Source: an uncultured Candidatus Saccharibacteria bacterium
GTDB taxonomy: Bacteria; Patescibacteriota; Minisyncoccia; Phycocordibacterales; UBA6065
DNA length: 64,000 bases
NCBI GenBank assembly: GCA_964368835.1
Contig: CAYJCZ010000005.1
Coordinates: forward strand, 43,695-107,694
Reading direction: 5' to 3'
In this document: positions 15,500 through 64,000 of the stretch, one piece after another
Layout of the letters: each line of letters begins with the position of its first letter
Position numbering within the stretch: position 1 is the stretch's first letter
The notes under the pieces: generated by a model
Databases searched by the model: none
Told to the model about the DNA's origin: nothing
Seen by the model: only the letters and a program-made list of their open reading frames with translations
Program-made: the position numbers and the translations under genes

Positions 15500-15547
15500 A
15501 ACAAAGAACCAGCTGGCTTTTTCTCAGAAAGAGTGTATAAAGTATGG

Positions 15548-15863
15548 GCCTGTATCAGACGGCCGCTCTCGCCAAAAGCGAGGGAGGAAAGTCCGAACAC
15601 ATCCGGGCGAAAGTCCGGAGCACAGTAGCGGGTAACCCCCGTCCAGGGCAACCTGAGAGGTGCGAACAGAAACGGCTCTCAACGAAAGAAGAGAGATGTC
15701 CCTTGGGACAGTCCTCATGGCAACATGAGGGTGCAACGGCAAAATCCTTACTTATGTGCAAGGCCGTGCCGACCGCAAGGTCGGAGTGCCGCTCGAGGTC
15801 TTTGGTAACAAGGATCCCAGATAAATGGCCGTCCACGACAAAATTCGGCTTATCGATACAGAC
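15548..15863 (+). ncRNA. rnpB: RNase P RNA (rnpB), reduced bacterial type
   Basis: Conserved blocks 'GAGGAAAGTCCG', 'GGGTAACCCCCGTCCAGGGCAACC', 'GTGCGAACAGAAACGGCTCT' and the 3' block 'GTCCACGACAAAATTCGGCTTATCG' (E. coli M1 RNA has GTCCACGACAGAACCCGGCTTATCG). P1 pairs tgtatc with gataca. The region is GC-rich and lacks an ORF. Confidence 0.8.
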
Positions 15864-15869
15864 AAAATG

Positions 15870-54506: not shown

Positions 54507-55142
54507 TTATTTTGGAGTTGCTGTGATGACTAGTGTCTCAACAAACTTTGGTGTAAATCGAGAAAAGAAGGCATACAACACATTGAGAAATTTCTTCTTT
54601 ATGCTCTGCTTGTATTCAACACCCAACGAATAGAGAAAATCTACAGATTCAACTTTCCAACCATTTCTTTCCAAAAGTACTGAGAGTGTCTTCGAATTGA
54701 AGTAGCACGTGTGCTCCCGATTAACCGTCGGCTCTGTCTTTGAAAGTTTTTCGGCAAGGTTAAAAAGATTGAATGTATTTGGAGTTGAAAGCACCAATCG
54801 TCCACCAGGCTTTATGTGCTTCTTTGCTTGAACAAGAAATAAGCCAGGATTAGATAGGTGTTCAATAAGATCTCCGGCAAAAATAACATCAAATTTCTTA
54901 TTGATTGAAAAATTTTCTGCATCACCCTTGAAATAATTTTGTTTCGGCCCAGGAACAAGACTTGGGTCATATTCAAGATCAAAGGCAAACACTTCTTGTG
55001 CACGAGCTCTCAAAATTTTATGAACCCAGTTTTCATCTTTCGGACTTACCCCTTGGCCCCAAAAACCCACATCAAGCACGACATCCTTAGAAGTTACACA
55101 GGTATTAATGAGTTCTTGTTTGTTTTTAAAGATTTTATTCAT
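54507..55142 (-). CDS. Class I SAM-dependent methyltransferase
   Basis: 'VVLDVGFWGQG...FDVIFAGDLIEHLSNP...IKPGGRLVLSTPN'. Confidence 0.7.
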   Translation of the reverse strand: MNKIFKNKQELINTCVTSKDVVLDVGFWGQGVSPKDENWVHKILRARAQEVFAFDLEYDPSLVPGPKQNYFKGDAENFSINKKFDVIFAGDLIEHLSNPGLFLVQAKKHIKPGGRLVLSTPNTFNLFNLAEKLSKTEPTVNREHTCYFNSKTLSVLLERNGWKVESVDFLYSLGVEYKQSIKKKFLNVLYAFFSRFTPKFVETLVITATPK

Positions 55143-56164
55143 TGCATTGAAACTATAAGATGCTCTGCGAGTTTTTCCAAACTGTGATGAGCTTCAGTGA
55201 TGGCGCGCAGACTTTTACCTGCAGCATCCTTGTCCTTTCGAGCAAGCAGTAATTGAAGCTTGTTTGAAACATCCTGAGTCTCGGCATTACAAATAAACGA
55301 ATCGTCAACGAGTGTTCGCAGGTTTTCATTCGAAGCAAGAATCATCGATTCACATGCAGCCGCTTCAAAGATTGTCTTGTCGTACATTCCCGACGAAGAG
55401 AGGTTCACGAAAATCTCGTGCTCACTATATACCTTCGGAGTTGAATCGTTAGGAATGCCTGAAAAAAAAGTAACCTTATCAGACAATCCCCAGTCCTTTG
55501 ATTTTTTCTTTAAGTCCTCAAGATACTCTTTATCCTTAGGAAGCGGATCACCGTAAAACGATGCGTTGAATGAAATTCCTTTATCTGAGATTTCTTTCAA
55601 AGCCTCGAGAAGAACGTGTGGCTTTTTAACTGGTGCAACACGACCCAAGAAAAGTATTGATGCTGGTTTACGAACCACATCTGTCTGCTTCCTAAAAAAA
55701 TGAGTGTCGATTCCAACCGGCATAAGAACTGTCTTCTTATACTTTGCTGTAAAAGAAAACTTTGAAGTGCAAAATACTTTTGTGCAAAATGCTGCAGCGA
55801 TATCCGTGAGCAGATTTCCTGCATGGTGATTGCGCCACATATATACACGCTTGCCTAAAAGCTTCCACAACAGTCCTCCCAAGAGCACATATTCTTGATT
55901 CATATGCACGAGCACTGCATCGTACTCACTCTTCAAGCTCGTGATATATCTGAAAAAATTCTTAACGTACAAAAATCTTGATTCCTTCTTCTCCTTACCG
56001 AGTGAGTAAACTTTGACATTGGCTGGCAGTGACGTGACCCCCTGCTTAAGACAAATCACAGAAACTGAATCTACTTTCTTTGAAAACTCACTTACCCAAC
56101 GATGAAAGAAGCCGAGCACCGGATCATTCTTATCAATAACCTGCGTGATAACGAGGAGTTTCAT
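55139..56164 (-). CDS. Glycosyltransferase family 4 (GT-B)
   Basis: C-terminal 'SSSGMYDKTIFEAAACESMILASN' and a typical GT4 length. Confidence 0.65.
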   Translation of the reverse strand: MKLLVITQVIDKNDPVLGFFHRWVSEFSKKVDSVSVICLKQGVTSLPANVKVYSLGKEKKESRFLYVKNFFRYITSLKSEYDAVLVHMNQEYVLLGGLLWKLLGKRVYMWRNHHAGNLLTDIAAAFCTKVFCTSKFSFTAKYKKTVLMPVGIDTHFFRKQTDVVRKPASILFLGRVAPVKKPHVLLEALKEISDKGISFNASFYGDPLPKDKEYLEDLKKKSKDWGLSDKVTFFSGIPNDSTPKVYSEHEIFVNLSSSGMYDKTIFEAAACESMILASNENLRTLVDDSFICNAETQDVSNKLQLLLARKDKDAAGKSLRAITEAHHSLEKLAEHLIVSMQ

Positions 56165-56589
56165 TGTTTCTTAAATATGAAAAGCCTGTAGATAAAGAAA
56201 CAACCTGAGGCAACAAGGAGTATTGATGCGATTTGAGATGGAAGATAATGCAAACGTAACTTTTCGACAAAAAAGTATACGAGCGCAGTTGTGGCACACA
56301 AACTCGCAAAATAAAGAATCGAGTAATATACAAACTGTCTTGTCGCGTGTGTTTCATCCTTGTCCTCAAAGGTTACGTACTTCTGAAGAAGAAAACGAAC
56401 AACGAAAGCAATCGTCATTGCGAAAATATGTGCTGAGATGTAGTAAACGTTAACATATGCCACTAAAACGTTTGCCAAAATGACCTCAATTGCCGCAGCC
56501 GTGCCTCCCGAAAATACATATCGTATAAACGTAGATTTATGGAATATATCGAGCCCCCACTGTACCGGTGCTAAAAGGAGTTTTGCCAT
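56161..56589 (-). CDS. GtrA family polysaccharide-biosynthesis membrane protein
   Basis: 142 aa with 4 TM helices, 'RYVFSGGTAAAIEVILANVL' and a C-terminal 'RLFIFKK'. Confidence 0.7.
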   Translation of the reverse strand: MAKLLLAPVQWGLDIFHKSTFIRYVFSGGTAAAIEVILANVLVAYVNVYYISAHIFAMTIAFVVRFLLQKYVTFEDKDETHATRQFVYYSILYFASLCATTALVYFFVEKLRLHYLPSQIASILLVASGCFFIYRLFIFKKQ

Positions 56590-56597
56590 AGCCTCAA

Positions 56598-57701
56598 TTA
56601 TAGCAGAGCACGCTCTATATCGGCCCTAAAAGCCTCTAAATAGGCCTGTTTTGAGGCATATGGGTACTTATAGTCCTTATTCCTAACCATGCATGAAAAG
56701 GCCTTTTTAAGGGCTTCTGAGAGGCCTCTTAGGTCCCCTGGGGTCACAATACATTCTTCGCTTGCAAGCAGGGGTGCAATACCAGCATCGGTTGCTACAA
56801 GCATCGCACCAGAAGCATGCGCCTCAAGCATCGAAAGTCCGTACCCTTCATACAGCGATGATGAGATAAACACATCGCATGTCTTCATATATGAAATCAA
56901 AGTTTTCTGATCCGCCCAATCTTCTACAATTACTGCACCTTTAAAACTTTTTGCTTTGGTTAAAATACCTGGCAAAAGTGGACCCGATCCAACAATGACA
57001 AGTCCTGAGTCGGAATATGCTTTGTGTGTGATATTAAATGCTCGAAGTGCTGTATAAATATCTTTCTCTTTTGTGAATCGTGATGCAATGAGCGCTATTT
57101 TTTTAAATTGAGGATATTTCTTTGCAAGATCAACAGTCACAGGACTTGTTCGAATTGCATCTAGATCTGCAAATATAGGCAACACAGTAACTTTGCTTTG
57201 ATATCGCGGAGCAAGCGAAGTCTTTATTCGCTGTGACACAACGCGAATCGCATGGCTCTTTTTTAGAATTTTTCTTGATAAGAAAATACGAAATTTATTC
57301 AAGATGCCCTGCGCAAAGTAAAAACTATTAAGATCTGTATGTATCTGGGTATGTAAATGAATGCCTGTTTGTTCAGAGAGATATAGTCCCACTATTCCCG
57401 CTTCAAAAGGATCCTGAGTTGTTATAACCGTATCCTGCACTGAGAGACCCGACACTGAAATAACCTCCCTTCCGATTTTCTTAGCATCTGGAATATATGA
57501 AAACTTTGATGACGAGTTAGTTGGATACACACGGACATTATGCCCAATCGAAATCACAGAACCTGCATGCAAACTTTTTTTTGTGAATAAAACTATATGT
57601 AATTCCTTAAAAAGCTTTCCGTACTCTTCCATGCGTAGACGTACAGAAGAACCCTCTTCGAGGATTTTCTGATCGGTCGATATCATGAGTACTTTTATCA
57701 T
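56598..57701 (-). CDS. Glycosyltransferase family 4 (GT-B)
   Basis: 'SSSLYEGYGLSMLEAHASGAMLVATDAG'. Confidence 0.7.
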   Translation of the reverse strand: MIKVLMISTDQKILEEGSSVRLRMEEYGKLFKELHIVLFTKKSLHAGSVISIGHNVRVYPTNSSSKFSYIPDAKKIGREVISVSGLSVQDTVITTQDPFEAGIVGLYLSEQTGIHLHTQIHTDLNSFYFAQGILNKFRIFLSRKILKKSHAIRVVSQRIKTSLAPRYQSKVTVLPIFADLDAIRTSPVTVDLAKKYPQFKKIALIASRFTKEKDIYTALRAFNITHKAYSDSGLVIVGSGPLLPGILTKAKSFKGAVIVEDWADQKTLISYMKTCDVFISSSLYEGYGLSMLEAHASGAMLVATDAGIAPLLASEECIVTPGDLRGLSEALKKAFSCMVRNKDYKYPYASKQAYLEAFRADIERALL

Positions 57702-58810
57702 AACGATTTGAGTTCTTTTTCGAGGGTGTCGAGCATCGCCTCATCGGTAAATTTGCCAACAGCTTTCTTTGCTTCTTTTGCAATCATGAAGGCAATCGCT
57801 CGCTCAGACAAAAATCCTTTGATCGCTTCAATAAATGCGCCCTTATCATTTGGAGGAAGGAGTGCGCCACTGCGACCATGCGTAATCACTTCTGGATTTC
57901 CACCTATATCTGTTGTTACAACCGGTGTACCGATCGCCATAGTTTCAAGAATCTGATGAGAGAGGCCCTCGTACGACGTGTTGAGTACAAATACATCGGC
58001 CGCCTTTATATATTCAAAAAGCTCAGCCTGTGAAAGCCTGCCAGCAAGTCGGACCGCACCTGCCAGATTTAGTTCCATAATCCTTTTTTCGAGCTGTGGT
58101 CTTTCTGGACCGTCGCCCACGATGACAAGATTTGCATTGGGTAGCGATTCGATAATCTCAGGCATCATTTCAATCACTTCCATCATTCCTTTCCACGGAA
58201 CAAGTCTTCCGGCCGTAACAATAACTTCTCCCGACAAAGAAAGTCTTTTACGAATATTTGGCTTGAGTGCCTTTGTTACCGATACATGAAAACCGTTATA
58301 TATGACAGAAATCTTTTCCAAGGCGATGCCCCACGCAGAAACAATTCCTTTGAGATACTTGGACGGCACAACAATACGGAAAGAACCCTCAGCAACATAC
58401 ATCTGGATTCTCTTAAGGAGTCTTACCTGCCACGGATATTTTTCATGCTCTTTCACAAACTGATCGAGCGTATCTGATACGTTCCATCTCTGAGATCCTT
58501 GCTCCCAGGCATAGTCACCAGCAATACGAAGTACGAATTTTTTCTTTCGTACTTGAGCAGCAATAAGGGCCGGCAAACCTACTGAAACTGGATCCAGTGC
58601 ATAAATAAGATCAACATCCGGAGCCTTTCTTAAAAGTTCAAGAAAATACAAAAAATGTCGAATAATCTTTGGTTTGTCTAAATAATCGCCAAATGTGGCG
58701 ATCTCGACATCTATACCTCTTTTAGGTAGTTCGTCATATAAAAGTTTCGAATATGTAGCAGGTCCTCCAATCTGTGGCGGGAATATGCCGGTAGCTAAAA
58801 GGATTTTCAT
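57698..58810 (-). CDS. Glycosyltransferase family 4 (GT-B)
   Basis: 'NTSYEGLSHQILETMAIGTPVVTTDIGGNPEVI'. Confidence 0.8.
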   Translation of the reverse strand: MKILLATGIFPPQIGGPATYSKLLYDELPKRGIDVEIATFGDYLDKPKIIRHFLYFLELLRKAPDVDLIYALDPVSVGLPALIAAQVRKKKFVLRIAGDYAWEQGSQRWNVSDTLDQFVKEHEKYPWQVRLLKRIQMYVAEGSFRIVVPSKYLKGIVSAWGIALEKISVIYNGFHVSVTKALKPNIRKRLSLSGEVIVTAGRLVPWKGMMEVIEMMPEIIESLPNANLVIVGDGPERPQLEKRIMELNLAGAVRLAGRLSQAELFEYIKAADVFVLNTSYEGLSHQILETMAIGTPVVTTDIGGNPEVITHGRSGALLPPNDKGAFIEAIKGFLSERAIAFMIAKEAKKAVGKFTDEAMLDTLEKELKSL

Positions 58811-60039
58811 TCGCCCATTATATCAAAGACCTTCTTTTTCATATCACTGGAAACTATGTTCCAATCATATTTTTCCTTCACCATACTCATTGCATTATCA
58901 ACAATCTCGTCGCGTAACACTTTGTCGTGAAGGTACACCTCAACTTTCCGAGCAATATCTTCAGGTGAATGAACTTCGCAAAAAAGACCCGTCTCTTTAT
59001 TCTTCAAGAAATCAACAATACCTCCGACAGGTGTGGCGATTACAGGTAGTCCTGCAGCCATCGCCTCTATAAATGAATTTCCAAAACCTTCAGATAGTGA
59101 AGGGCGAATAAAAATGTCAGAGACCTTAAGATACTTTGGCATATCAGCGTGCGAAACATACCCAAGGAAGATTACGCGATCAGAAACACCTTTATCTGTT
59201 GCCAGCCTCTTAAGTTCCTCAAGTTGATAGCCTACACCGAGCACAAGCAGCTTTACATTTTTTGGTAAAAATTCGAGCGATTCGATGATATCGCCAACAG
59301 CATTCTTAACTACCAGCCTTGAGGTTGTTATAAGGAAAATATCCCCTGGTTCTTTATGGAGATTCCTTTTAAGGGTCTCAAGCTCCGCTCCAGAATACTC
59401 ATACGTAAAGCGTGCTATATCAACGCCATTTGGCACCACTTCGACCGCGGCCGTCGCACCCATATCATTTGCAAAATCTGCAAGATACTTTGAAATAGTC
59501 TGAATTTTCTGTGCATTTCGAAAAATCATTTTAAAAATTGAATACACAAGAAACTTCACAGGAATTTTTACAGGACCAATGATTACTTTGAAAGATTGAT
59601 TCTTTATATACTCAAGCGGATCACCCTCTTGAAGGGTAAGAATAAAAGGCACATTCATATGAAAAAGTTTAAAGAAAAGGGCGCCGAATCCCGAGTAGTT
59701 TGCCATCATGCCCCATATGCCATCAAACTTTTTCTCACTGTGCAGATGCGTCGCTTTTATCACCGCAAGGAATGGATACGCGTATTTATTAAGGTGTAAG
59801 TACCACGGCAGTGAATCCGCCGAATCTTTACTTTTGCCCGTCCAACCAACACGATGAACCATCACGTTTCCAATCTTCTCTTCTTTGGGGAGATTCTTAT
59901 CGAGTCGAAGTGCGATCAAATGAAATTCAAAATCTTCCTGATCCATTCGATCAGTTATTTCCTTAATCGCGATTTCTGCTCCGCCGATAAATCGCGGATA
60001 GTATACGAATGAAAATATGAGTACTCGTTTTGCTGCCAT
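58807..60039 (-). CDS. Glycosyltransferase family 4 (GT-B)
   Basis: 'RPSLSEGFGNSFIEAMAAGLPVIATPVGGIVDFL'. Confidence 0.8.
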   Translation of the reverse strand: MAAKRVLIFSFVYYPRFIGGAEIAIKEITDRMDQEDFEFHLIALRLDKNLPKEEKIGNVMVHRVGWTGKSKDSADSLPWYLHLNKYAYPFLAVIKATHLHSEKKFDGIWGMMANYSGFGALFFKLFHMNVPFILTLQEGDPLEYIKNQSFKVIIGPVKIPVKFLVYSIFKMIFRNAQKIQTISKYLADFANDMGATAAVEVVPNGVDIARFTYEYSGAELETLKRNLHKEPGDIFLITTSRLVVKNAVGDIIESLEFLPKNVKLLVLGVGYQLEELKRLATDKGVSDRVIFLGYVSHADMPKYLKVSDIFIRPSLSEGFGNSFIEAMAAGLPVIATPVGGIVDFLKNKETGLFCEVHSPEDIARKVEVYLHDKVLRDEIVDNAMSMVKEKYDWNIVSSDMKKKVFDIMGE

Positions 60040-60097: not shown

Positions 60098-61993
60098 TTA
60101 GACTTCAAGTATTCTCTTGAGCACATCTTCCGGTACTTCTTTTGCTTCATGCTTGGGAGCCTCTACTGGCTGCCTTCGCGCCTCAACTTTAGGCTCTTCT
60201 TTTGGAACATGTTTCTCCTCTTTCTTTGGCTCTTCTACTGGCTTTGGCTTATCCCCTGCAGTATTGCCTATAAGTGAAGCAAGAGCCTTCTTGAGATCTT
60301 CTCTACTTTCAGGAGTTACTCCCTTTTTCTCTGGTCGTGGAGTGTTGCCCGTACGCATAGAAGATTCTGATTTTGAGTGCTGCAAATTTTTAAGCGCATC
60401 GAGTCCCTGAAACCCATCAGCTTCATCTGCTGGAGGCTTTGGCATTTCTTTTCGTTCGTGCGGTACCTGTGGAGCTTGTCTGTCTCTGCTATCTCTGCCG
60501 TGATCATGATGTGGATGCTGGTCTCTTCGAGGCGCATCATTTGATGGTCGGGGAGAATGAGTCTGAGGCGGGTGTGAGTGCTGAGGGTGCGAAAGCGTAG
60601 TATGTGCTGTTTGTGTTGAAGGTGCTGCTGTTTGTGCTCCTCGTTCGTCAGGTCTTCGTGGCGGCTGTGCATCCCTTGGTTTGCCTGGCACTGCATTGAG
60701 TTCCTCACTCATAGTTTGCTTGCGCACCTGCTCTTCAACTATAGAACGCACCTGACCAAACTGTGCTCGAGAACTTTCAACAACCAAGTCTCTGTGTGAA
60801 ATAGCCGGCTCTGCGATTGGCGGCAGATTACGCGCTGAAAACGGCTGAGATCCAACACCGTCGATCATAAGGCGAAGGTACAGTTGAAACTGTCCCAAGT
60901 TAACTATATCTTCGGCTGTAAACTGTGGTGCAAACTCCTTTTCAAGTACTTCGGCATCATATGCTCCCACACGAAATACAATCATTGTTCCCACGTTACC
61001 GAACACCGCCGCCCTAACTTCTTCTGACATCTGCTCTATATATTGATGAGCAATGGTGAGGTTAAGCTTATACTTTCGCGCCTCTGACAAAATGTCGGCA
61101 AAAGACTCGTTTGCAAAAGACTGAAATTCGTCCACAAAAAGATAAAAGTTTGGAAGAGTCTTGAGTGTTTTTTCTGCCACGTCGGCACGTGACATTGCCG
61201 CAAGATAAATTTTGGTGATAAGCATCGCACCCAATAGGTTTGCGTTTGATTCTCCCACCCTTCCCTTAGAAAGGTTAACAATGATGATTTTGCGCTCGTC
61301 CATCATCTTTCGAATATCGAATGATGATTTTGGCTGACCGATAATGTTTCTAATAAGCGGATTGTTTGTAAACTGTCCGATCTTGTTTTGAATAGCGGGG
61401 GTCGCTTCTGCTGCAAACTTTTCTGTATACTTTGCAAATTCATCTACCCAAAAAGATTTCACGGCTGGATCACTAATATTGTCCACAACCTTTTTTCGAT
61501 ACGCTTTGTCAGAAAGCATTTTGTTTACACCCAAAAGAGTTGCCCCTGGATATTCAAGCAAGGCGAGAAGTGTATTTCCTAAAATGTATTCCATTCGAGC
61601 CGACCACGCATCAACCCAGATTTTTTTAAAGGTCGACATAAGACCCGACACGACGAGATGTCGCTTGTCATAGCCCACATCTTCCATCACGTTAAACGAT
61701 GCAGGAAAATCAGTATCGAAGGGTGCAAAATAGAGCACATCTTTGATTCGATGCTCTGGAACATAATTGAGGAGGAGTTCAGCAGTCTTGCCGTGAGGAT
61801 CAATAAAGCAGAGACCCTCGCCCGACTGAATATCTTGTACCGCCATGTTCTCAAGGAGGGTCGATTTACCCATACCCGTCTTACCGATGACATACATATG
61901 GCGCGTACGATCTTTGGCCTTTATGCCGAATTTTATTTTCTTATTTCTGGAGTCCGTCTCGGCGAAGTATGTGACTTTGTCATCGCTCGTCAT
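60098..61993 (-). CDS. P-loop ATPase of the VirD4/TraD/HerA-like (AAA_10/DUF87) clan with a long disordered C-terminal tail
   Basis: Walker A 'VIGKTGMGKSTLLENM', Walker B-like 'FYLFVDEFQSFA', and 'LTIAHQYIEQM'. There are no N-terminal TM helices. The last roughly 200 aa are rich in P/Q/H/K/E and of low complexity. Confidence 0.55.
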   Translation of the reverse strand: MTSDDKVTYFAETDSRNKKIKFGIKAKDRTRHMYVIGKTGMGKSTLLENMAVQDIQSGEGLCFIDPHGKTAELLLNYVPEHRIKDVLYFAPFDTDFPASFNVMEDVGYDKRHLVVSGLMSTFKKIWVDAWSARMEYILGNTLLALLEYPGATLLGVNKMLSDKAYRKKVVDNISDPAVKSFWVDEFAKYTEKFAAEATPAIQNKIGQFTNNPLIRNIIGQPKSSFDIRKMMDERKIIIVNLSKGRVGESNANLLGAMLITKIYLAAMSRADVAEKTLKTLPNFYLFVDEFQSFANESFADILSEARKYKLNLTIAHQYIEQMSEEVRAAVFGNVGTMIVFRVGAYDAEVLEKEFAPQFTAEDIVNLGQFQLYLRLMIDGVGSQPFSARNLPPIAEPAISHRDLVVESSRAQFGQVRSIVEEQVRKQTMSEELNAVPGKPRDAQPPRRPDERGAQTAAPSTQTAHTTLSHPQHSHPPQTHSPRPSNDAPRRDQHPHHDHGRDSRDRQAPQVPHERKEMPKPPADEADGFQGLDALKNLQHSKSESSMRTGNTPRPEKKGVTPESREDLKKALASLIGNTAGDKPKPVEEPKKEEKHVPKEEPKVEARRQPVEAPKHEAKEVPEDVLKRILEV

Positions 61994-62011
61994 TTGAGAA
62001 TAAGTATGCCA

Positions 62012-62050
62012 TTTTTTCGTTATAAAAAGAAGAACCCGCCGAATTGCTTC
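62012..62050 (-). terminator. Minus-strand intrinsic terminator about 20 nt upstream of the ATPase start codon
   Basis: Hairpin acccgccgaa-ttgc-ttcggcgggt, with TTCTTCTTTTTAT following on the minus strand. Confidence 0.6.
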
Positions 62051-62446
62051 GGCGGGTTGTGTAAGGCTTAAGGCCTCAAACTACGGAATCAGGTACCCCT
62101 CGGTTGGGTGAATTGCACCGTTCTCGCAGCAAAGCGAGCATCGATGTTACTTGCACCCTGAGTCGAGAGGCATTGGCCGGGCAAACCTTGGCGTCGTTCG
62201 GGCGGACGGGGCGTAGACCCCGACATATCCCGAAACGAATAGGCACCATGATGTACAGGACCAGGAGAAGGCGTCCCCCCTCCGATGACTCCATCTTTCA
62301 ATGTACTCATTTCGATATCAATTTCGATTTTTCTAGGCACTTTCTCGGAGGCGATCGTCCTTCGGGAAAGGTCCAAATCAGAGTGACTTAGACAAAGAAA
62401 ATCATACTCCTTAATCATGATATTGTAAAGGCCAGTCAATTTTGAG

Positions 62447-62488
62447 GAGAAAAATAAAAAAGCCGCACGAATCACTTCGTGCGGACTT
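62447..62488 (-). terminator. Minus-strand intrinsic terminator
   Basis: Hairpin agccgcacgaa-tcac-ttcgtgcggact, with TTTTTTATTTTTCTCC following on the minus strand. Confidence 0.65.
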
Positions 62489-62498
62489 GAAGCCAGTA

Positions 62499-62711
62499 TT
62501 AAATACCGGCCGAACGTACCCTGCGGCAAATCGGCTGTCTGCCCCGATCGCAGCTGTTGCAAATGTCTCCACTTCGCATGAGCGGCATGAGCTTTTTCCA
62601 ACCACAGGTATTGCACCTGTAGGCAAACACGATAACACAGTTGTTGACAAACCGAACCGTTCTAATCGATGCAACAACAAGAGGTCTGAACTGACGTTTT
62701 ATTGAGGTCAT
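62499..62711 (-). CDS. Candidate small zinc-ribbon protein (CxxC-x15-CxxC)
   Basis: A 70-aa ORF, 'YRCNTCGWKK...ICNSCDRG', lying between the GH-like gene stop (62788) and the 62447-62488 terminator. No homolog is recognised and it is GC-rich. Confidence 0.25.
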   Translation of the reverse strand: MTSIKRQFRPLVVASIRTVRFVNNCVIVFAYRCNTCGWKKLMPLMRSGDICNSCDRGRQPICRRVRSAGI

Positions 62712-62787: not shown

Positions 62788-64000
62788 CTAGAGTGCCGGT
62801 TCAAGAGCGGCCCGAGTATACCTATTCCCTGCGTTCCATAGGAGCCATGAATCCAAGCCAGCGTCATACGCGGCCTTAATCTGATCACGCACCATTTCAG
62901 CAGTATAGGGAACGGGATAATTATTATCTTGAAGCCACGGTCTAAGCTTCCTTCTATCAAAGGGAGGCTTTTCATACATCGCTGGTGTAGAGGTACCGAT
63001 GCGAGCATTAGGAATAAATACTTTTGTGGTTGTAGCAATTGTTCTCTCCACTGCCCTGTCCATCGAATATTTCACGACTTCGTACACATGCTGATTTGGA
63101 TCGCCAAACCCAAGAAAAGTTTTTGGATAATGTGACGGATACACCATAGGAGAAATAAAATCGAAATTAGGCAAAGCATCTTCGAGGACCTGACCGATAT
63201 TAAGATCATCAAAGTTAGTAGTCGTCATGCCAAAAAGATCGGCAGAAATAACAATGCCCTTTGGTGACAACGTCTCATGCAAATATCCAAAGAAAGATCG
63301 CATCACATCACTTTTCTTTTGATCCCCACTCCACGGATAATAAATATCTTTCATGTTTCCGTCTGATGGGAACCTGATGTAATCAAAATTGATTTCATCA
63401 AATCCAATGCCATGCGCCTCTTGCGCAATATCGACAAGATACTTCCAGTGAGGACGTGCAGAAGCATCGATCCACGAGATACCCTTATGATCTGCCCACG
63501 CGGTTGTGGTCGCACTCTCTTTTTTAACCGCTAACTCTGGATGAAACTTAACTTGGAGAGCGTCCTGAAATGAAGCAAGTCGACCAATCACATAAATATC
63601 ATGGTCGTGAAGCTTGTCTATCAGATCTTGCATGTCGGGAACAAAACATCCCCCTTCAGCCTTTTTAATTATTTCGTCTTTTGCCTCAAAAGAAATATGT
63701 CCATCAAATGATTTAATATCAATCACCACAGCGTTGAGCTCGGTCTCATCGATAAGCTTAATTAAGTTATCTCGAAGATTTTTTACAGAAGCTACGCAAG
63801 ATGTCATGTATATGCCCCTTACAAACTCAGGCGTAGAAACATGAGTAGCTTTTCTGCCAGTATCTTCGATAACAGGAGTTGTCGTTGCAAGCACAACATC
63901 CTGACCCTGATATGTTGTGTCACTTAGGACAGGAACACCTATATAAAGCCCAATGGTAGCGAGAAGGAAAAGAAGCCCGAGGCCGATGCTCGTTCTGTAT
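62788..64000 (-). CDS. DUF4015-like putative glycoside hydrolase (TIM-barrel GH-like), N-terminally anchored/secreted; 5' end beyond the window
   Basis: 'FDEINFDYIRFPSDG' DUF4015 motif. The frame stays open to nt 64000 and encodes the TM/signal segment 'IGLGLLFLLATIGLYIGVPVL'. The track's 'M' at 63894 is a GTG codon inside the ORF. Confidence 0.55.
   Translation of the reverse strand, partial: YRTSIGLGLLFLLATIGLYIGVPVLSDTTYQGQDVVLATTTPVIEDTGRKATHVSTPEFVRGIYMTSCVASVKNLRDNLIKLIDETELNAVVIDIKSFDGHISFEAKDEIIKKAEGGCFVPDMQDLIDKLHDHDIYVIGRLASFQDALQVKFHPELAVKKESATTTAWADHKGISWIDASARPHWKYLVDIAQEAHGIGFDEINFDYIRFPSDGNMKDIYYPWSGDQKKSDVMRSFFGYLHETLSPKGIVISADLFGMTTTNFDDLNIGQVLEDALPNFDFISPMVYPSHYPKTFLGFGDPNQHVYEVVKYSMDRAVERTIATTTKVFIPNARIGTSTPAMYEKPPFDRRKLRPWLQDNNYPVPYTAEMVRDQIKAAYDAGLDSWLLWNAGNRYTRAALEPAL

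Follow-up and report, generated by a model that had tools for sequence, protein, structure and literature searches.

The window, the whole 64,000-nt stretch of DNA analyzed here, carries on its minus strand a 631-aa CDS for a T4CP-family ATPase at positions 60098 to 61993 (ATG start, stop codon at 60098-60100; ORF call and Pfam). Its product matched P0001 at 100% and had thousands of homologs (more than 8000, the best 120 of which were all at least 80% identical), and its start codon lies at the same position across 80 related loci. Upstream on the same strand are a 73-aa Gly/Pro/Arg-rich small ORF (62089-62310), a 70-aa zinc-ribbon small ORF with its terminator (62463-62711; ORF at 62499-62711 with CxxC-x13-CxxC, terminator at 62484-62463, from the ORF call and a terminator scan), and a gene for a DUF4015 putative glycoside hydrolase (62788-64000; Pfam E = 1.2e-88), whose 5′ end lies beyond the window and whose protein in locus L001 has 414 aa. 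Analogous CxxC...CxxC small ORFs occupy the equivalent place in L002-L005. Downstream, minus-strand genes at 55139-60039 encode GT4 (58807-60039), GT4 (57698-58810), GT4 (56598-57701), GtrA (56161-56589), and GT4 (55139-56164), the first GT4 beginning 58 nt past the ATPase stop codon with no terminator in the gap.

The ATPase ORF is a real gene, and its product is a soluble P-loop ATPase that belongs, within the HerA/FtsK superfamily, to the VirD4/TrwB coupling-protein branch. The protein passed the Pfam gathering cut-offs of T4SS-DNA_transf (33.1 bits; cut-off, 20.1), TrwB_AAD_bind (residues 26-343; 32.3 bits; cut-off, 20.5), and TraG-D_C (24.9 bits; cut-off, 22), all three by narrow margins, and of DUF87 (27.3 bits; cut-off, 23.2). 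On the other hand, FtsK_SpoIIIE stayed below its cut-off (12.7 bits versus 24), as did VirB4 (TIGR00929, 19.3 bits versus 643; the VirB4 N-domain is absent), and the ATPase reached none of the NCBIfam TraD/VirD4 equivalog cut-offs, scoring far below them (53 versus 366 bits and 36.5 versus 250 bits). TrwB was the top match in a PDB sequence search, and the DNA-translocating ATPase CedD was matched weakly. The AF2 model had a pLDDT above 90 over residues 1-432, and Foldseek matched it to HerA, Cag-beta, TrwB (TM-score on target, 0.60-0.66), DotL, and VirB4, HerA having the best E value (9e-14). These profile and structure results, together with the gene context, agree with the first-pass annotation, made from the sequence alone, which had called the protein a cytoplasmic ATPase of the T4CP/HerA clan and proposed the profile searches.

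The nucleotide-binding domain of the protein is RecA-like, carries invariant Walker A and B motifs, and is interrupted by an all-alpha domain. Walker A (GKTGMGKS, residues 37-44; 61862-61885, minus strand) and the Walker B region (FYLFVDEF, residues 283-290, with VDEF at 287-290; 61124-61147, minus strand) were located by sequence and alignment, and residues G37, K38, G40, G42, K43, and S44 of the former and D288, E289, and F290 of the latter showed no variation in a 117-sequence CPR-wide alignment. The all-alpha domain (residues 108-232; 61298-61672, minus strand), seen in the AF2 model, the Pfam match, and the alignment, has eight helices with a pLDDT above 90, falls inside the TrwB_AAD_bind match, and holds 16 residues that are invariant in the same alignment. 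Only about 25 aa precede the P-loop strand; the model has no N-terminal domain and hence no HAS-barrel, and the gene has no NurA neighbor. No transmembrane segment was found in the protein (peak 19-residue Kyte-Doolittle average, 1.26).

TrwB of plasmid R388, VirD4, TraG, TraD, and DotL share with the window ATPase the RecA-like domain, Walker A and B, and an all-alpha insertion at the equivalent place, but TrwB and the other T4CPs are only about 14 to 16% identical to it. Canonical T4CPs join the secretion channel through an N-terminal membrane domain; the window ATPase lacks this domain, which speaks against a T4SS role. It also differs from T4CPs in being unlinked to Mpf or relaxase genes and in being encoded by a chromosomal core gene; its identity across the class, 78%, is unusually high for a coupling protein and a further point against such a role. 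With HerA it shares the superfamily fold and the DUF87 match, but the HerA HAS-barrel and a partner nuclease or effector (NurA, Sir2, DUF4297) were not found with it, its neighbors being glycan genes. Both the motor signature and the gamma domain of FtsK/SpoIIIE are missing from it.

Residues 433-631 (60101-60697, minus strand) form a disordered P/E/K/R-rich tail, defined by pLDDT and composition, whose length and sequence vary among relatives. The pLDDT there was about 40 to 60 except in two helices (residues 561-575 and 622-630), and hydrophobic residues made up 12% of the tail versus 36% of the ATPase domain. This bears out the earlier description of a disordered, low-complexity tail of about 200 aa. 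Its reading as P/Q/H/K-rich held for P, K, and a His cluster but not for Q, which is only modest; counted from residue 431 (201 aa), the tail has P 29, E 21, K 19, A 17, R 17, D 13, H 13, S 12, and Q 11. Tail length was 142 to 330 aa in 106 homologs (median, 214). Within the tail lie a semiconserved helical motif, EDLKKALASLIG (residues 565-576; 60266-60301, minus strand), which overlaps the first model helix and belongs to a DLKxALxxI type present in 79 of 119 homologs, and a conserved C-terminal peptide, EVPEDVLKRILEV (residues 619-631; 60101-60139, minus strand), a putative docking motif containing the second helix. The C-terminal motif recurs among the last 25 aa in at least 81 of the 119 homologs, behind a linker that cannot be aligned, and has a single occurrence across all six reading frames of the window. 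C-terminal extensions act as docking regions in TraD-TraM and in the DotL tail, and by analogy the window tail could do the same.

The hairpin 5′ of the ATPase belongs to a separate 73-aa gene, which it terminates. This intrinsic terminator (62023-62058, minus strand) consists of a stem-loop at 62058-62033 (11 pairs, 7 of them G-C, with a loop of 4) and a T tract at 62032-62023, which end 39 and 29 nt, respectively, from the ATPase ATG, rather than at 62012-62050 and 20 nt from the start as first annotated. Relative to L174 and L175 it shows two compensatory pair changes (A-T to G-C and C-G to T-A). The 73-aa ORF, which forms the core of what had been called a GC-rich element, was recognized by codon-position statistics and ORF retention: its length is held at 73 to 77 aa in L002, L169, and L174, and the comparison with a close relative showed 8, 12, and 24 substitutions at the three codon positions (p = 0.009, a third-position excess), an in-frame 3-nt indel, and a shared stop codon. 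The ORF is fast-evolving; its region had no match in Rfam or ARAGORN, and the ORF had none in Pfam. It has a sigma-70-type promoter (TTTACA, 17 nt, TATGAT; 62401-62429, minus strand), conserved in L002, L169, L174, and L175, and a 5′ UTR of about 85 nt with two hairpins.

Between the hairpin and the ATPase, 9 nt from the ATG, lies an extended -10 element, TGGCATACT (62003-62011, minus strand), kept as TGnCAtAAT in loci L002-L007, L174, and L175. A -10-like hexamer was present within 45 nt of the ATPase start in 74 of 80 related loci versus 55% of control ORFs, and leaderless -10 spacing (5 to 11 nt) in 43 of the 80 versus 21% of controls. The predicted transcription start at about 61995-61997 would make the ATPase mRNA leaderless or nearly so. 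From this pattern we infer that the extended -10 promoter belongs to the ATPase gene itself and drives a predicted leaderless mRNA, and we regard the case for its identity and its transcription, graded jointly, as strong.

The first-pass annotation had instead suggested that ATPase expression would need transcription from the GC-rich element (62051-62446), with read-through or attenuation at the hairpin. An ATPase gene with no promoter of its own, governed by this element through the hairpin, would fit a hairpin that is strong and close to the ATG, a 372-nt upstream transcript with an unusually stable fold (z = -5.0), and a window hexamer, CATACT, that matches only 4 of 6 consensus positions. 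However, the element is an independent protein-coding unit with promoter, ORF, and terminator, and it is confined to the close relatives of the window, the spacer at other loci being as short as 31 to 133 nt. The hairpin does not look like an attenuator either, as it ends a separate coding unit, has the conserved extended -10 box downstream of it, and matched no leader, riboswitch, or other cis-regulatory family in Rfam. We therefore consider the read-through model very unlikely, and an independent promoter, which the annotation itself had set against its proposal, is what is seen at the sequence and comparative level. The general lesson for genome scanning is that a terminator can mimic an attenuator when a leaderless promoter follows it.

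The ATPase is a core chromosomal gene of nearly all Paceibacteria, ultrasmall CPR bacteria, and is under very strong constraint. Relatives were encoded at 592 loci in GTDB species genomes and at 580 loci in metagenomes, and median identity across the class fell from 78% in the ATPase domain to 51% in DUF4015 and 46% in the first GT4. Orphan T4CP homologs in Patescibacteria are already known from published work, and the window ATPase is a variant among them: VirD4-like homologs number 5,713 in 2,918 of 3,035 Patescibacteria genomes, only 148 of them near virB4 (PMC12102498). These T4CP homologs occur in more genomes (2,918) than does VirB4 (2,417), a count that weighs against a T4SS role. In Southlakia, the T4SS cluster has no recognizable coupling protein (PMC10633639). 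The Southlakia t4cp homolog, a candidate counterpart of the window family, was dispensable in an organism in which the T4SS is essential (PMC12102498), another observation unfavorable to a T4SS role.

The same ATPase occurs fused to an N-terminal DUF8128 domain in other CPR classes and in a Gram-positive conjugation operon. In the long forms of Gracili-, Peregrini-, Berkel-, and Abawacabacteria, the ATPase domain is 45 to 53% identical to that of the window, and 76 alignment columns are invariant across short and long forms. These CPR proteins are chromosomal, mostly distant from T4SS genes, and in some cases also have disordered tails; unlike the window protein, they carry an N-terminal DUF8128 of 300 to 420 aa, in some starting with a hydrophobic helix. 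Their gene contexts vary, Berkelbacteria carrying two tandem copies and one Peregrinibacteria form being located after LCP, VanW, and GH3/VanY genes. The closest relative found in a recognizable conjugation context was a 913-aa protein of a 65-kb Bacillus subtilis plasmid (CP120602.1, P5635_00045), the ATPase domain of which is 31.6% identical over 84% (E = 3e-36). Its C-terminal tail is long, acidic, and of low complexity, comparable with that of the window protein, but the plasmid protein also has an N-terminal DUF8128 of about 350 aa (hhalign 98.8%, E = 1.4e-16), and it is set in a plasmid transfer operon with TcpD/TcpE-family genes downstream, whereas the window gene is chromosomal. Domain-only or DUF8128-fused homologs were also found on plasmids and beside transposases.

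The best overall explanation, to which we assign a probability of roughly 55%, is that the gene encodes an own-promoter, T4CP-family core ATPase that works as a tethered motor or receptor and has a chromosomal T4SS as its likeliest partner. The protein would act as a ring-shaped, ATP-driven motor or as a substrate receptor, and the C-terminal peptide would tether it to a membrane-associated partner. That partner may be the unlinked, conjugation-derived chromosomal T4SS of Patescibacteria, the cluster of which has no coupling protein of its own. The T4SS step is the weakest of the explanation and, taken alone, falls somewhat short of even odds.

The surroundings of the gene are conserved. DUF4015 lies on the ATPase strand within 3 kb upstream at 43 of 59 loci, and a GT4 orthologue lies downstream at 43 of 61, with the GT4/GtrA gene order conserved among related loci; most related loci are thus flanked by DUF4015 and GT genes, and in the window positions 32 to 64 kb form a single large glycan cluster. 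The ATPase-to-GT4 gap was at most 100 nt and free of terminator-like sites in 30 of 52 loci, with some genes overlapping. Terminator-like hairpins upstream of the ATPase were commoner than in controls (25 of 79 loci versus 8.5%), suggesting that the gene tends to start a transcription unit; it probably often heads a transcript running on into the GT4 glycosyltransferase genes. Among the 30 other window ORFs scanned, no secretion, conjugation, or pilus gene was found, nor any integrase, relaxase, or transposase, and the ATPase gene lies outside any mobile element. The earlier view of a stand-alone ATPase thus holds for T4SS genes (0 of 30 ORFs) but not overall, given the conserved glycan-gene neighborhood. 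The lack of T4SS genes among these ORFs, the flanking genes, and the constant place at the head of a GT4 operon, which suggests another partner, are observations that run counter to a T4SS role.

This neighborhood could mean that the ATPase was exapted to a cell-envelope glycan pathway, where a glycopolymer or a glycosylated surface protein would be assembled or exported with the ATPase as motor or organizer. The linkage to DUF4015 and GT4 persists despite the 46 to 51% identity of these neighbors, the short gaps and upstream hairpins point the same way, and the context of one Peregrinibacteria long form agrees; a loose analogy is SecA2, an accessory ATPase whose gene lies among GT4 genes. However, no glycan pathway is known to use a HerA/FtsK-type ATPase, the long forms in Berkelbacteria, Abawacabacteria, and other CPR are not consistently associated with glycan genes, a shared gene order inside a single class may be inherited without a functional link, and the ATPase is much more conserved than the GT genes. 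We consider such a role possible but unlikely. A related proposal, which we hold with similar reserve, is that a conjugation-derived coupling ATPase shed DUF8128 and became a domesticated, essential housekeeping motor with no remaining T4SS function; tethered in an FtsZ-like manner through its disordered linker and C-terminal docking peptide, it would have as partner either the divisome or the envelope glycan or surface-protein machinery encoded by the operon that it heads.

Less probable still is a housekeeping role as a HerA/FtsK-like DNA motor that segregates chromosomes at division, takes up DNA behind ComEC or type IV pili, or serves in end resection, with the tail peptide recruiting it to the divisome or uptake machinery. 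The best Foldseek E value, the DUF87 and weak CedD matches, and the near-universal presence and very strong conservation of the gene favor this role. FtsZ also combines an NTPase domain, a disordered linker, and a short conserved C-terminal peptide, a layout similar to that of the window ATPase, which we take as a lead only. The missing HAS-barrel and NurA neighbor, the failure of FtsK_SpoIIIE, and the absence of the FtsK gamma domain argue against it, and no DNA-metabolism gene is conserved beside the ATPase in related loci. Finally, a part in anti-phage defense (HerA type or MADS type), an option raised in the first-pass annotation, or an origin as a relic of an integrated conjugative element is highly improbable because the ATPase is a single-copy core gene in fixed synteny, present in more than 590 species genomes, the opposite of patchy islands and mobile elements. 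PADLOC gave a weak mad8 match (E = 2.4e-15), weak HerA matches, and a partial mad2 match to a methyltransferase 5 kb away (E = 3.8e-8), and there are the plasmid- and transposase-associated homologs, but the mad2 match spans only the generic SAM-binding fold, the other eight neighbor proteins scanned had no PADLOC match, and the window ORFs scanned lack mobility genes.

A large part of uncultivated bacterial diversity belongs to the Patescibacteria, and in this group conserved genes without an assigned role seldom equal this ATPase in constraint; its relatives occur in nearly every CPR genome. Exaptation to the envelope or to division would be a first for a coupling-protein ATPase, and a domesticated housekeeping motor would represent a new use of a HerA/FtsK-class ATPase. 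If the protein is instead the missing coupling protein of the chromosomal T4SS, which is essential, the cargo moved between epibiont and host could be sought directly through the tail peptide and the all-alpha domain.

The gene at 60098..61993 on the minus strand (ATG start, 631 aa) encodes a soluble ATPase of the T4CP fold with intact catalytic motifs and a tethered C-terminal motif; the gene belongs to the core set and is preceded by its own promoter-like element. The ORF is present as the first-pass annotation described it, and its assignment to the coupling-protein/HerA clan was right. Four Pfam families matched above their gathering cut-offs, namely, T4SS-DNA_transf (33.1 bits, cut-off 20.1), TrwB_AAD_bind (32.3 bits, 20.5), DUF87/HerA (27.3 bits, 23.2), and TraG-D_C (24.9 bits, 22), and TrwB was the top match among solved structures in a sequence search. 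Matches to the NCBIfam models TraD, VirD4, CedD, and VirB4 were all sub-threshold. In an AlphaFold2 model based on an alignment of 117 homologs, residues 1-432 were modeled confidently (pLDDT mostly >90), with a RecA-type core and a helical insert (residues 108-232), and residues 433-631 were predicted to be disordered, except for short helices at 561-575 and 622-630. We found no transmembrane segment in the protein, its top Kyte-Doolittle 19-residue average (1.26) being below transmembrane hydrophobicity. P, E, K, and R abound in the tail, which also has a cluster of histidines and only 12% hydrophobic residues and varies freely among homologs in length (142-330 aa) and sequence. It closes with an EVPEDVLKKIL-type peptide in at least 81 of 119 homologs and contains an internal DLKxALxxI helix in 79 of 119. 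Such a variable tail with conserved short motifs is the sequence signature of a flexible tether with putative docking motifs.

More than 8000 homologs of the ATPase were detected. Identity over the ATPase domain was 80% or higher for each of the best 120, and those among them with a name all came from MAGs of Paceibacteria/Parcubacteria or of Patescibacteria generically. Among GTDB species representatives, one scan confirmed 592 loci, with Taylor-, Zambryski-, Yonath-, Wolfe-, and Nomurabacteria represented; metagenomes added 580 loci, and 1.8 billion cluster representatives, searched without a profile, yielded 6,101 matches at E ≤1e-30. Within Paceibacteria, the median identity was 78% for the ATPase domain, compared with 51% for DUF4015 and 46% for GT4 at the same loci. 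Many TPA MAG records labeled Saccharibacteria (related loci L002 and L009-L011, among others) carry the ATPase gene at 75-95% identity, and the gene order around it matches that in Taylor- and Zambryskibacteria records; the label "uncultured Candidatus Saccharibacteria bacterium" on them looks generic or wrong.

The window is ordinary chromosome, carrying a tRNA synthetase, LepA, MurJ, ribonucleotide reductase, GatB, SecA, enolase, and RNase P RNA (class A bacterial; 15547-15868, plus strand, 136.6 bits), as well as tRNA-Val (2525), tRNA-Arg (7204), and tRNA-Phe (8562). Scanning 30 of its other ORFs revealed no secretion, pilus, or conjugation gene, in agreement with the earlier remark that the ATPase has none nearby. 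A cluster of glycan-biosynthesis genes, about 30 kb long, occupies 32317-64000, comprising a Wzy_C-TPR protein, a Polysacc_synt flippase, asparagine synthase, a DegT aminotransferase, a C-methyltransferase, a GT2-methyltransferase fusion, PMT_2, at least five GT4s, GtrA, two SAM methyltransferases, and DUF4015. A same-strand DUF4015 gene lies upstream of the ATPase gene in 43 of the 59 loci with enough flank and a GT4 ortholog downstream in 43/61; the gap to GT4 is ≤100 nt, sometimes an overlap, and devoid of a terminator-like site in 30/52. Given this short, terminator-free gap and the kept gene order, the ATPase, with glycan genes on both sides, is the predicted head of an operon of GT4s and GtrA in much of the class.

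The region at 62051-62446, termed a GC-rich element in the first-pass annotation, yielded no RNA gene by Rfam (E up to 1) or ARAGORN. The spacer from DUF4015 to the ATPase gene contains two small independent units, both on the minus strand. Unit 1 has a 70-aa zinc-ribbon ORF (62499-62711; CxxC-x13-CxxC) and a terminator (62484-62463). Across its extent (62463-62711), it has its own -10-like box and terminator, no family match was found, and analogous CxxC...CxxC small ORFs stand at its position in L002-L005. Unit 2 consists of a sigma-70-type promoter (62429-62401; TTTACA, 17 nt, TATGAT), a 5′ UTR of ~85 nt containing a conserved GCCTAGAAAAATCGAAA box as well as two hairpins, a Gly/Pro/Arg-rich 73-aa ORF (62089-62310) in which the motif G[PR]VxHxxY is conserved, and a terminator hairpin (62058-62033) followed by a T tract (62032-62023). 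Its transcript is predicted to fold unusually stably (z = -5.0), and Pfam, Rfam, and PADLOC searches with its product or RNA gave no match. The layout of both units recurs in the closest relatives (L002-L005, L007, L169, L174, and L175), with sequence alignment over the region possible only for the nearest ones; unit 2 evolves very fast and could be aligned only to L002, L169, L174, and L175. The two genes were inserted in the window's clade only, and the spacer ranges from 31 nt to >2 kb among loci.

L174 encodes an ATPase 99% identical to that of the window. Between the two, the unit 2 ORF differs at 44/222 sites, of which 8 fall on the first, 12 on the second, and 24 on the third codon position (chi-square p = 0.009), while the single indel is 3 nt and in frame and the stop codon is the same. 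These three features identify unit 2, at the level of sequence comparison, as a protein-coding gene. In the same comparison, pairing in the terminator stem (62058-62033) survives two double changes, one from A-T to G-C and one from C-G to T-A, so the hairpin is functional and belongs to unit 2. The hairpin reported earlier at 62012-62050 therefore exists, but at 62058-62033 plus the T tract at 62032-62023, and it lies 30-40 nt rather than 20 nt from the ATPase ATG.

Between this T tract and the ATG sits an extended -10 element, TGGCATACT (62011-62003), whose hexamer ends 9 nt 5′ of the ATG; close relatives have TGGCATAAT, TGACATAAT, or TGGCACAAT at this position. We aligned 80 loci on the conserved ATPase start codon and compared them with control ORFs, whose starts were taken as the first ATG, a caveat on the control percentages. 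A -10 hexamer (≥5/6 matches, ≤45 nt from the ATG) was present in 74/80 ATPase loci versus 55% of controls, and one at the leaderless spacing of 5-11 nt in 43/80 versus 21%. An upstream Shine-Dalgarno-like 4-mer was found in 1/80 versus 13%, and a terminator-like hairpin ≤120 nt upstream in 25/79 versus 8.5%. The recurrent order 5′ of the gene is terminator, promoter, ATG. The ATPase gene thus appears to begin its own transcription unit, and its mRNA is probably leaderless when translated. The sequence and its comparison speak against the proposal that it is expressed by read-through or attenuation; we judge the attenuation idea wrong, as the hairpin ends unit 2 and the promoter-like element lies 3′ of it. 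Among the control ORFs themselves (≥200 aa, from the window and L002-L081), the 13% with a Shine-Dalgarno-like 4-mer at -20..-4 and the 21% in which a -10 hexamer precedes the first ATG by 5-11 nt suggest that SD-independent or leaderless initiation is widespread in these genomes.

A long form of about 750-1100 aa, found in other CPR classes, including Gracili-, Peregrini-, Berkel-, and Abawacabacteria, has an N-terminal DUF8128 domain (PF26449) followed by the same ATPase at 45-53% identity. Some long forms start with a hydrophobic helix, some have long disordered tails, and their variable gene contexts are devoid of T4SS genes; the only T4SS-related neighbor among the contexts examined is a weak T4SS_pilin (VirB2-like) gene in L088 (16893-17336), about 6.7 kb from a long-form DUF8128-T4CP gene. 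In a complete Berkelbacteria genome (CP011213.1; L173, 6851-12988), a 171-aa gene lies between tandem DUF8128 + T4CP-like paralogs of 831 and 995 aa, and within 10 kb there is no T4SS gene; the pair fits the roughly two T4CP homologs per genome in the literature and suggests that hetero-oligomers may form. Two related proteins, P0225 (1210 aa) and P0254 (1227 aa), carry two tandem T4CP-like ATPase domains per polypeptide, judged from two matched stretches with a second P-loop near residue 820. Outside the CPR, a 65-kb Bacillus subtilis plasmid (CP120602.1; L172, 6948-9689) encodes a 913-aa "DUF87 domain-containing protein" just upstream of TcpD/TcpE-family conjugation genes. Its ATPase domain is 31.6% identical to that of the window, and an hhalign comparison shows homology between its N-domain and DUF8128 (98.8%, E 1.4e-16), so DUF8128 is not CPR specific and is part of a Gram-positive conjugation ATPase. 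A Sulfitobacter plasmid has a domain-only copy, 40.6% identical, among transposases. These plasmid relatives indicate that the lineage is a coupling-protein branch tied to monoderm conjugation systems, and the Paceibacteria form, judged by its domain content, has lost DUF8128. No indexed paper mentions DUF8128.

Orphan T4CP homologs in CPR are already known from two reports. Of the 5,713 VirD4-like homologs that Quinonero-Coronel et al. found in 2,918 of 3,035 Patescibacteria genomes, only 148 lay near virB4; VirB4 itself was present in 2,417 genomes and branched as a clade inside the monoderm MPF-FATA class, relaxases were almost absent, and the authors kept exaptation as a possibility (PMC12102498). 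In Southlakia, the t4cp homolog was dispensable and the T4SS essential (PMC12102498), and Wang et al. reported recognizable coupling and relaxase proteins to be missing from the T4SS cluster (PMC10633639). We found no description in the literature of the short form, which lacks a membrane segment and DUF8128, or of its extreme conservation, tail peptide, GT4-operon position, and predicted leaderless promoter.

We propose that the ATPase would form a ring acting as an ATP-driven receptor or motor, which the tail peptide would dock to a membrane-associated partner. Because of the shared ancestry and the coupling protein missing from the T4SS cluster, our best guess for this partner, held tentatively at a probability of about 0.35 to 0.4, is an unlinked chromosomal T4SS. 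The main rival, that the ATPase was exapted to an envelope-glycan pathway, is suggested by the conserved operon, but we consider it rather doubtful. A HerA/FtsK-like role on DNA ranks next and seems more doubtful still. A defense gene or mobile-element relic is unlikely given the distribution of the gene, and the weak PADLOC matches to MADS components that point that way, mad8 for the ATPase (60098-61993, minus; E 2.4e-15) and mad2 for a methyltransferase (54507-55142, minus; E 3.8e-8, partial), are probably generic fold matches. Whether as the tentative partner of a T4SS or otherwise, what this ATPase does is a worthwhile question for CPR biology.
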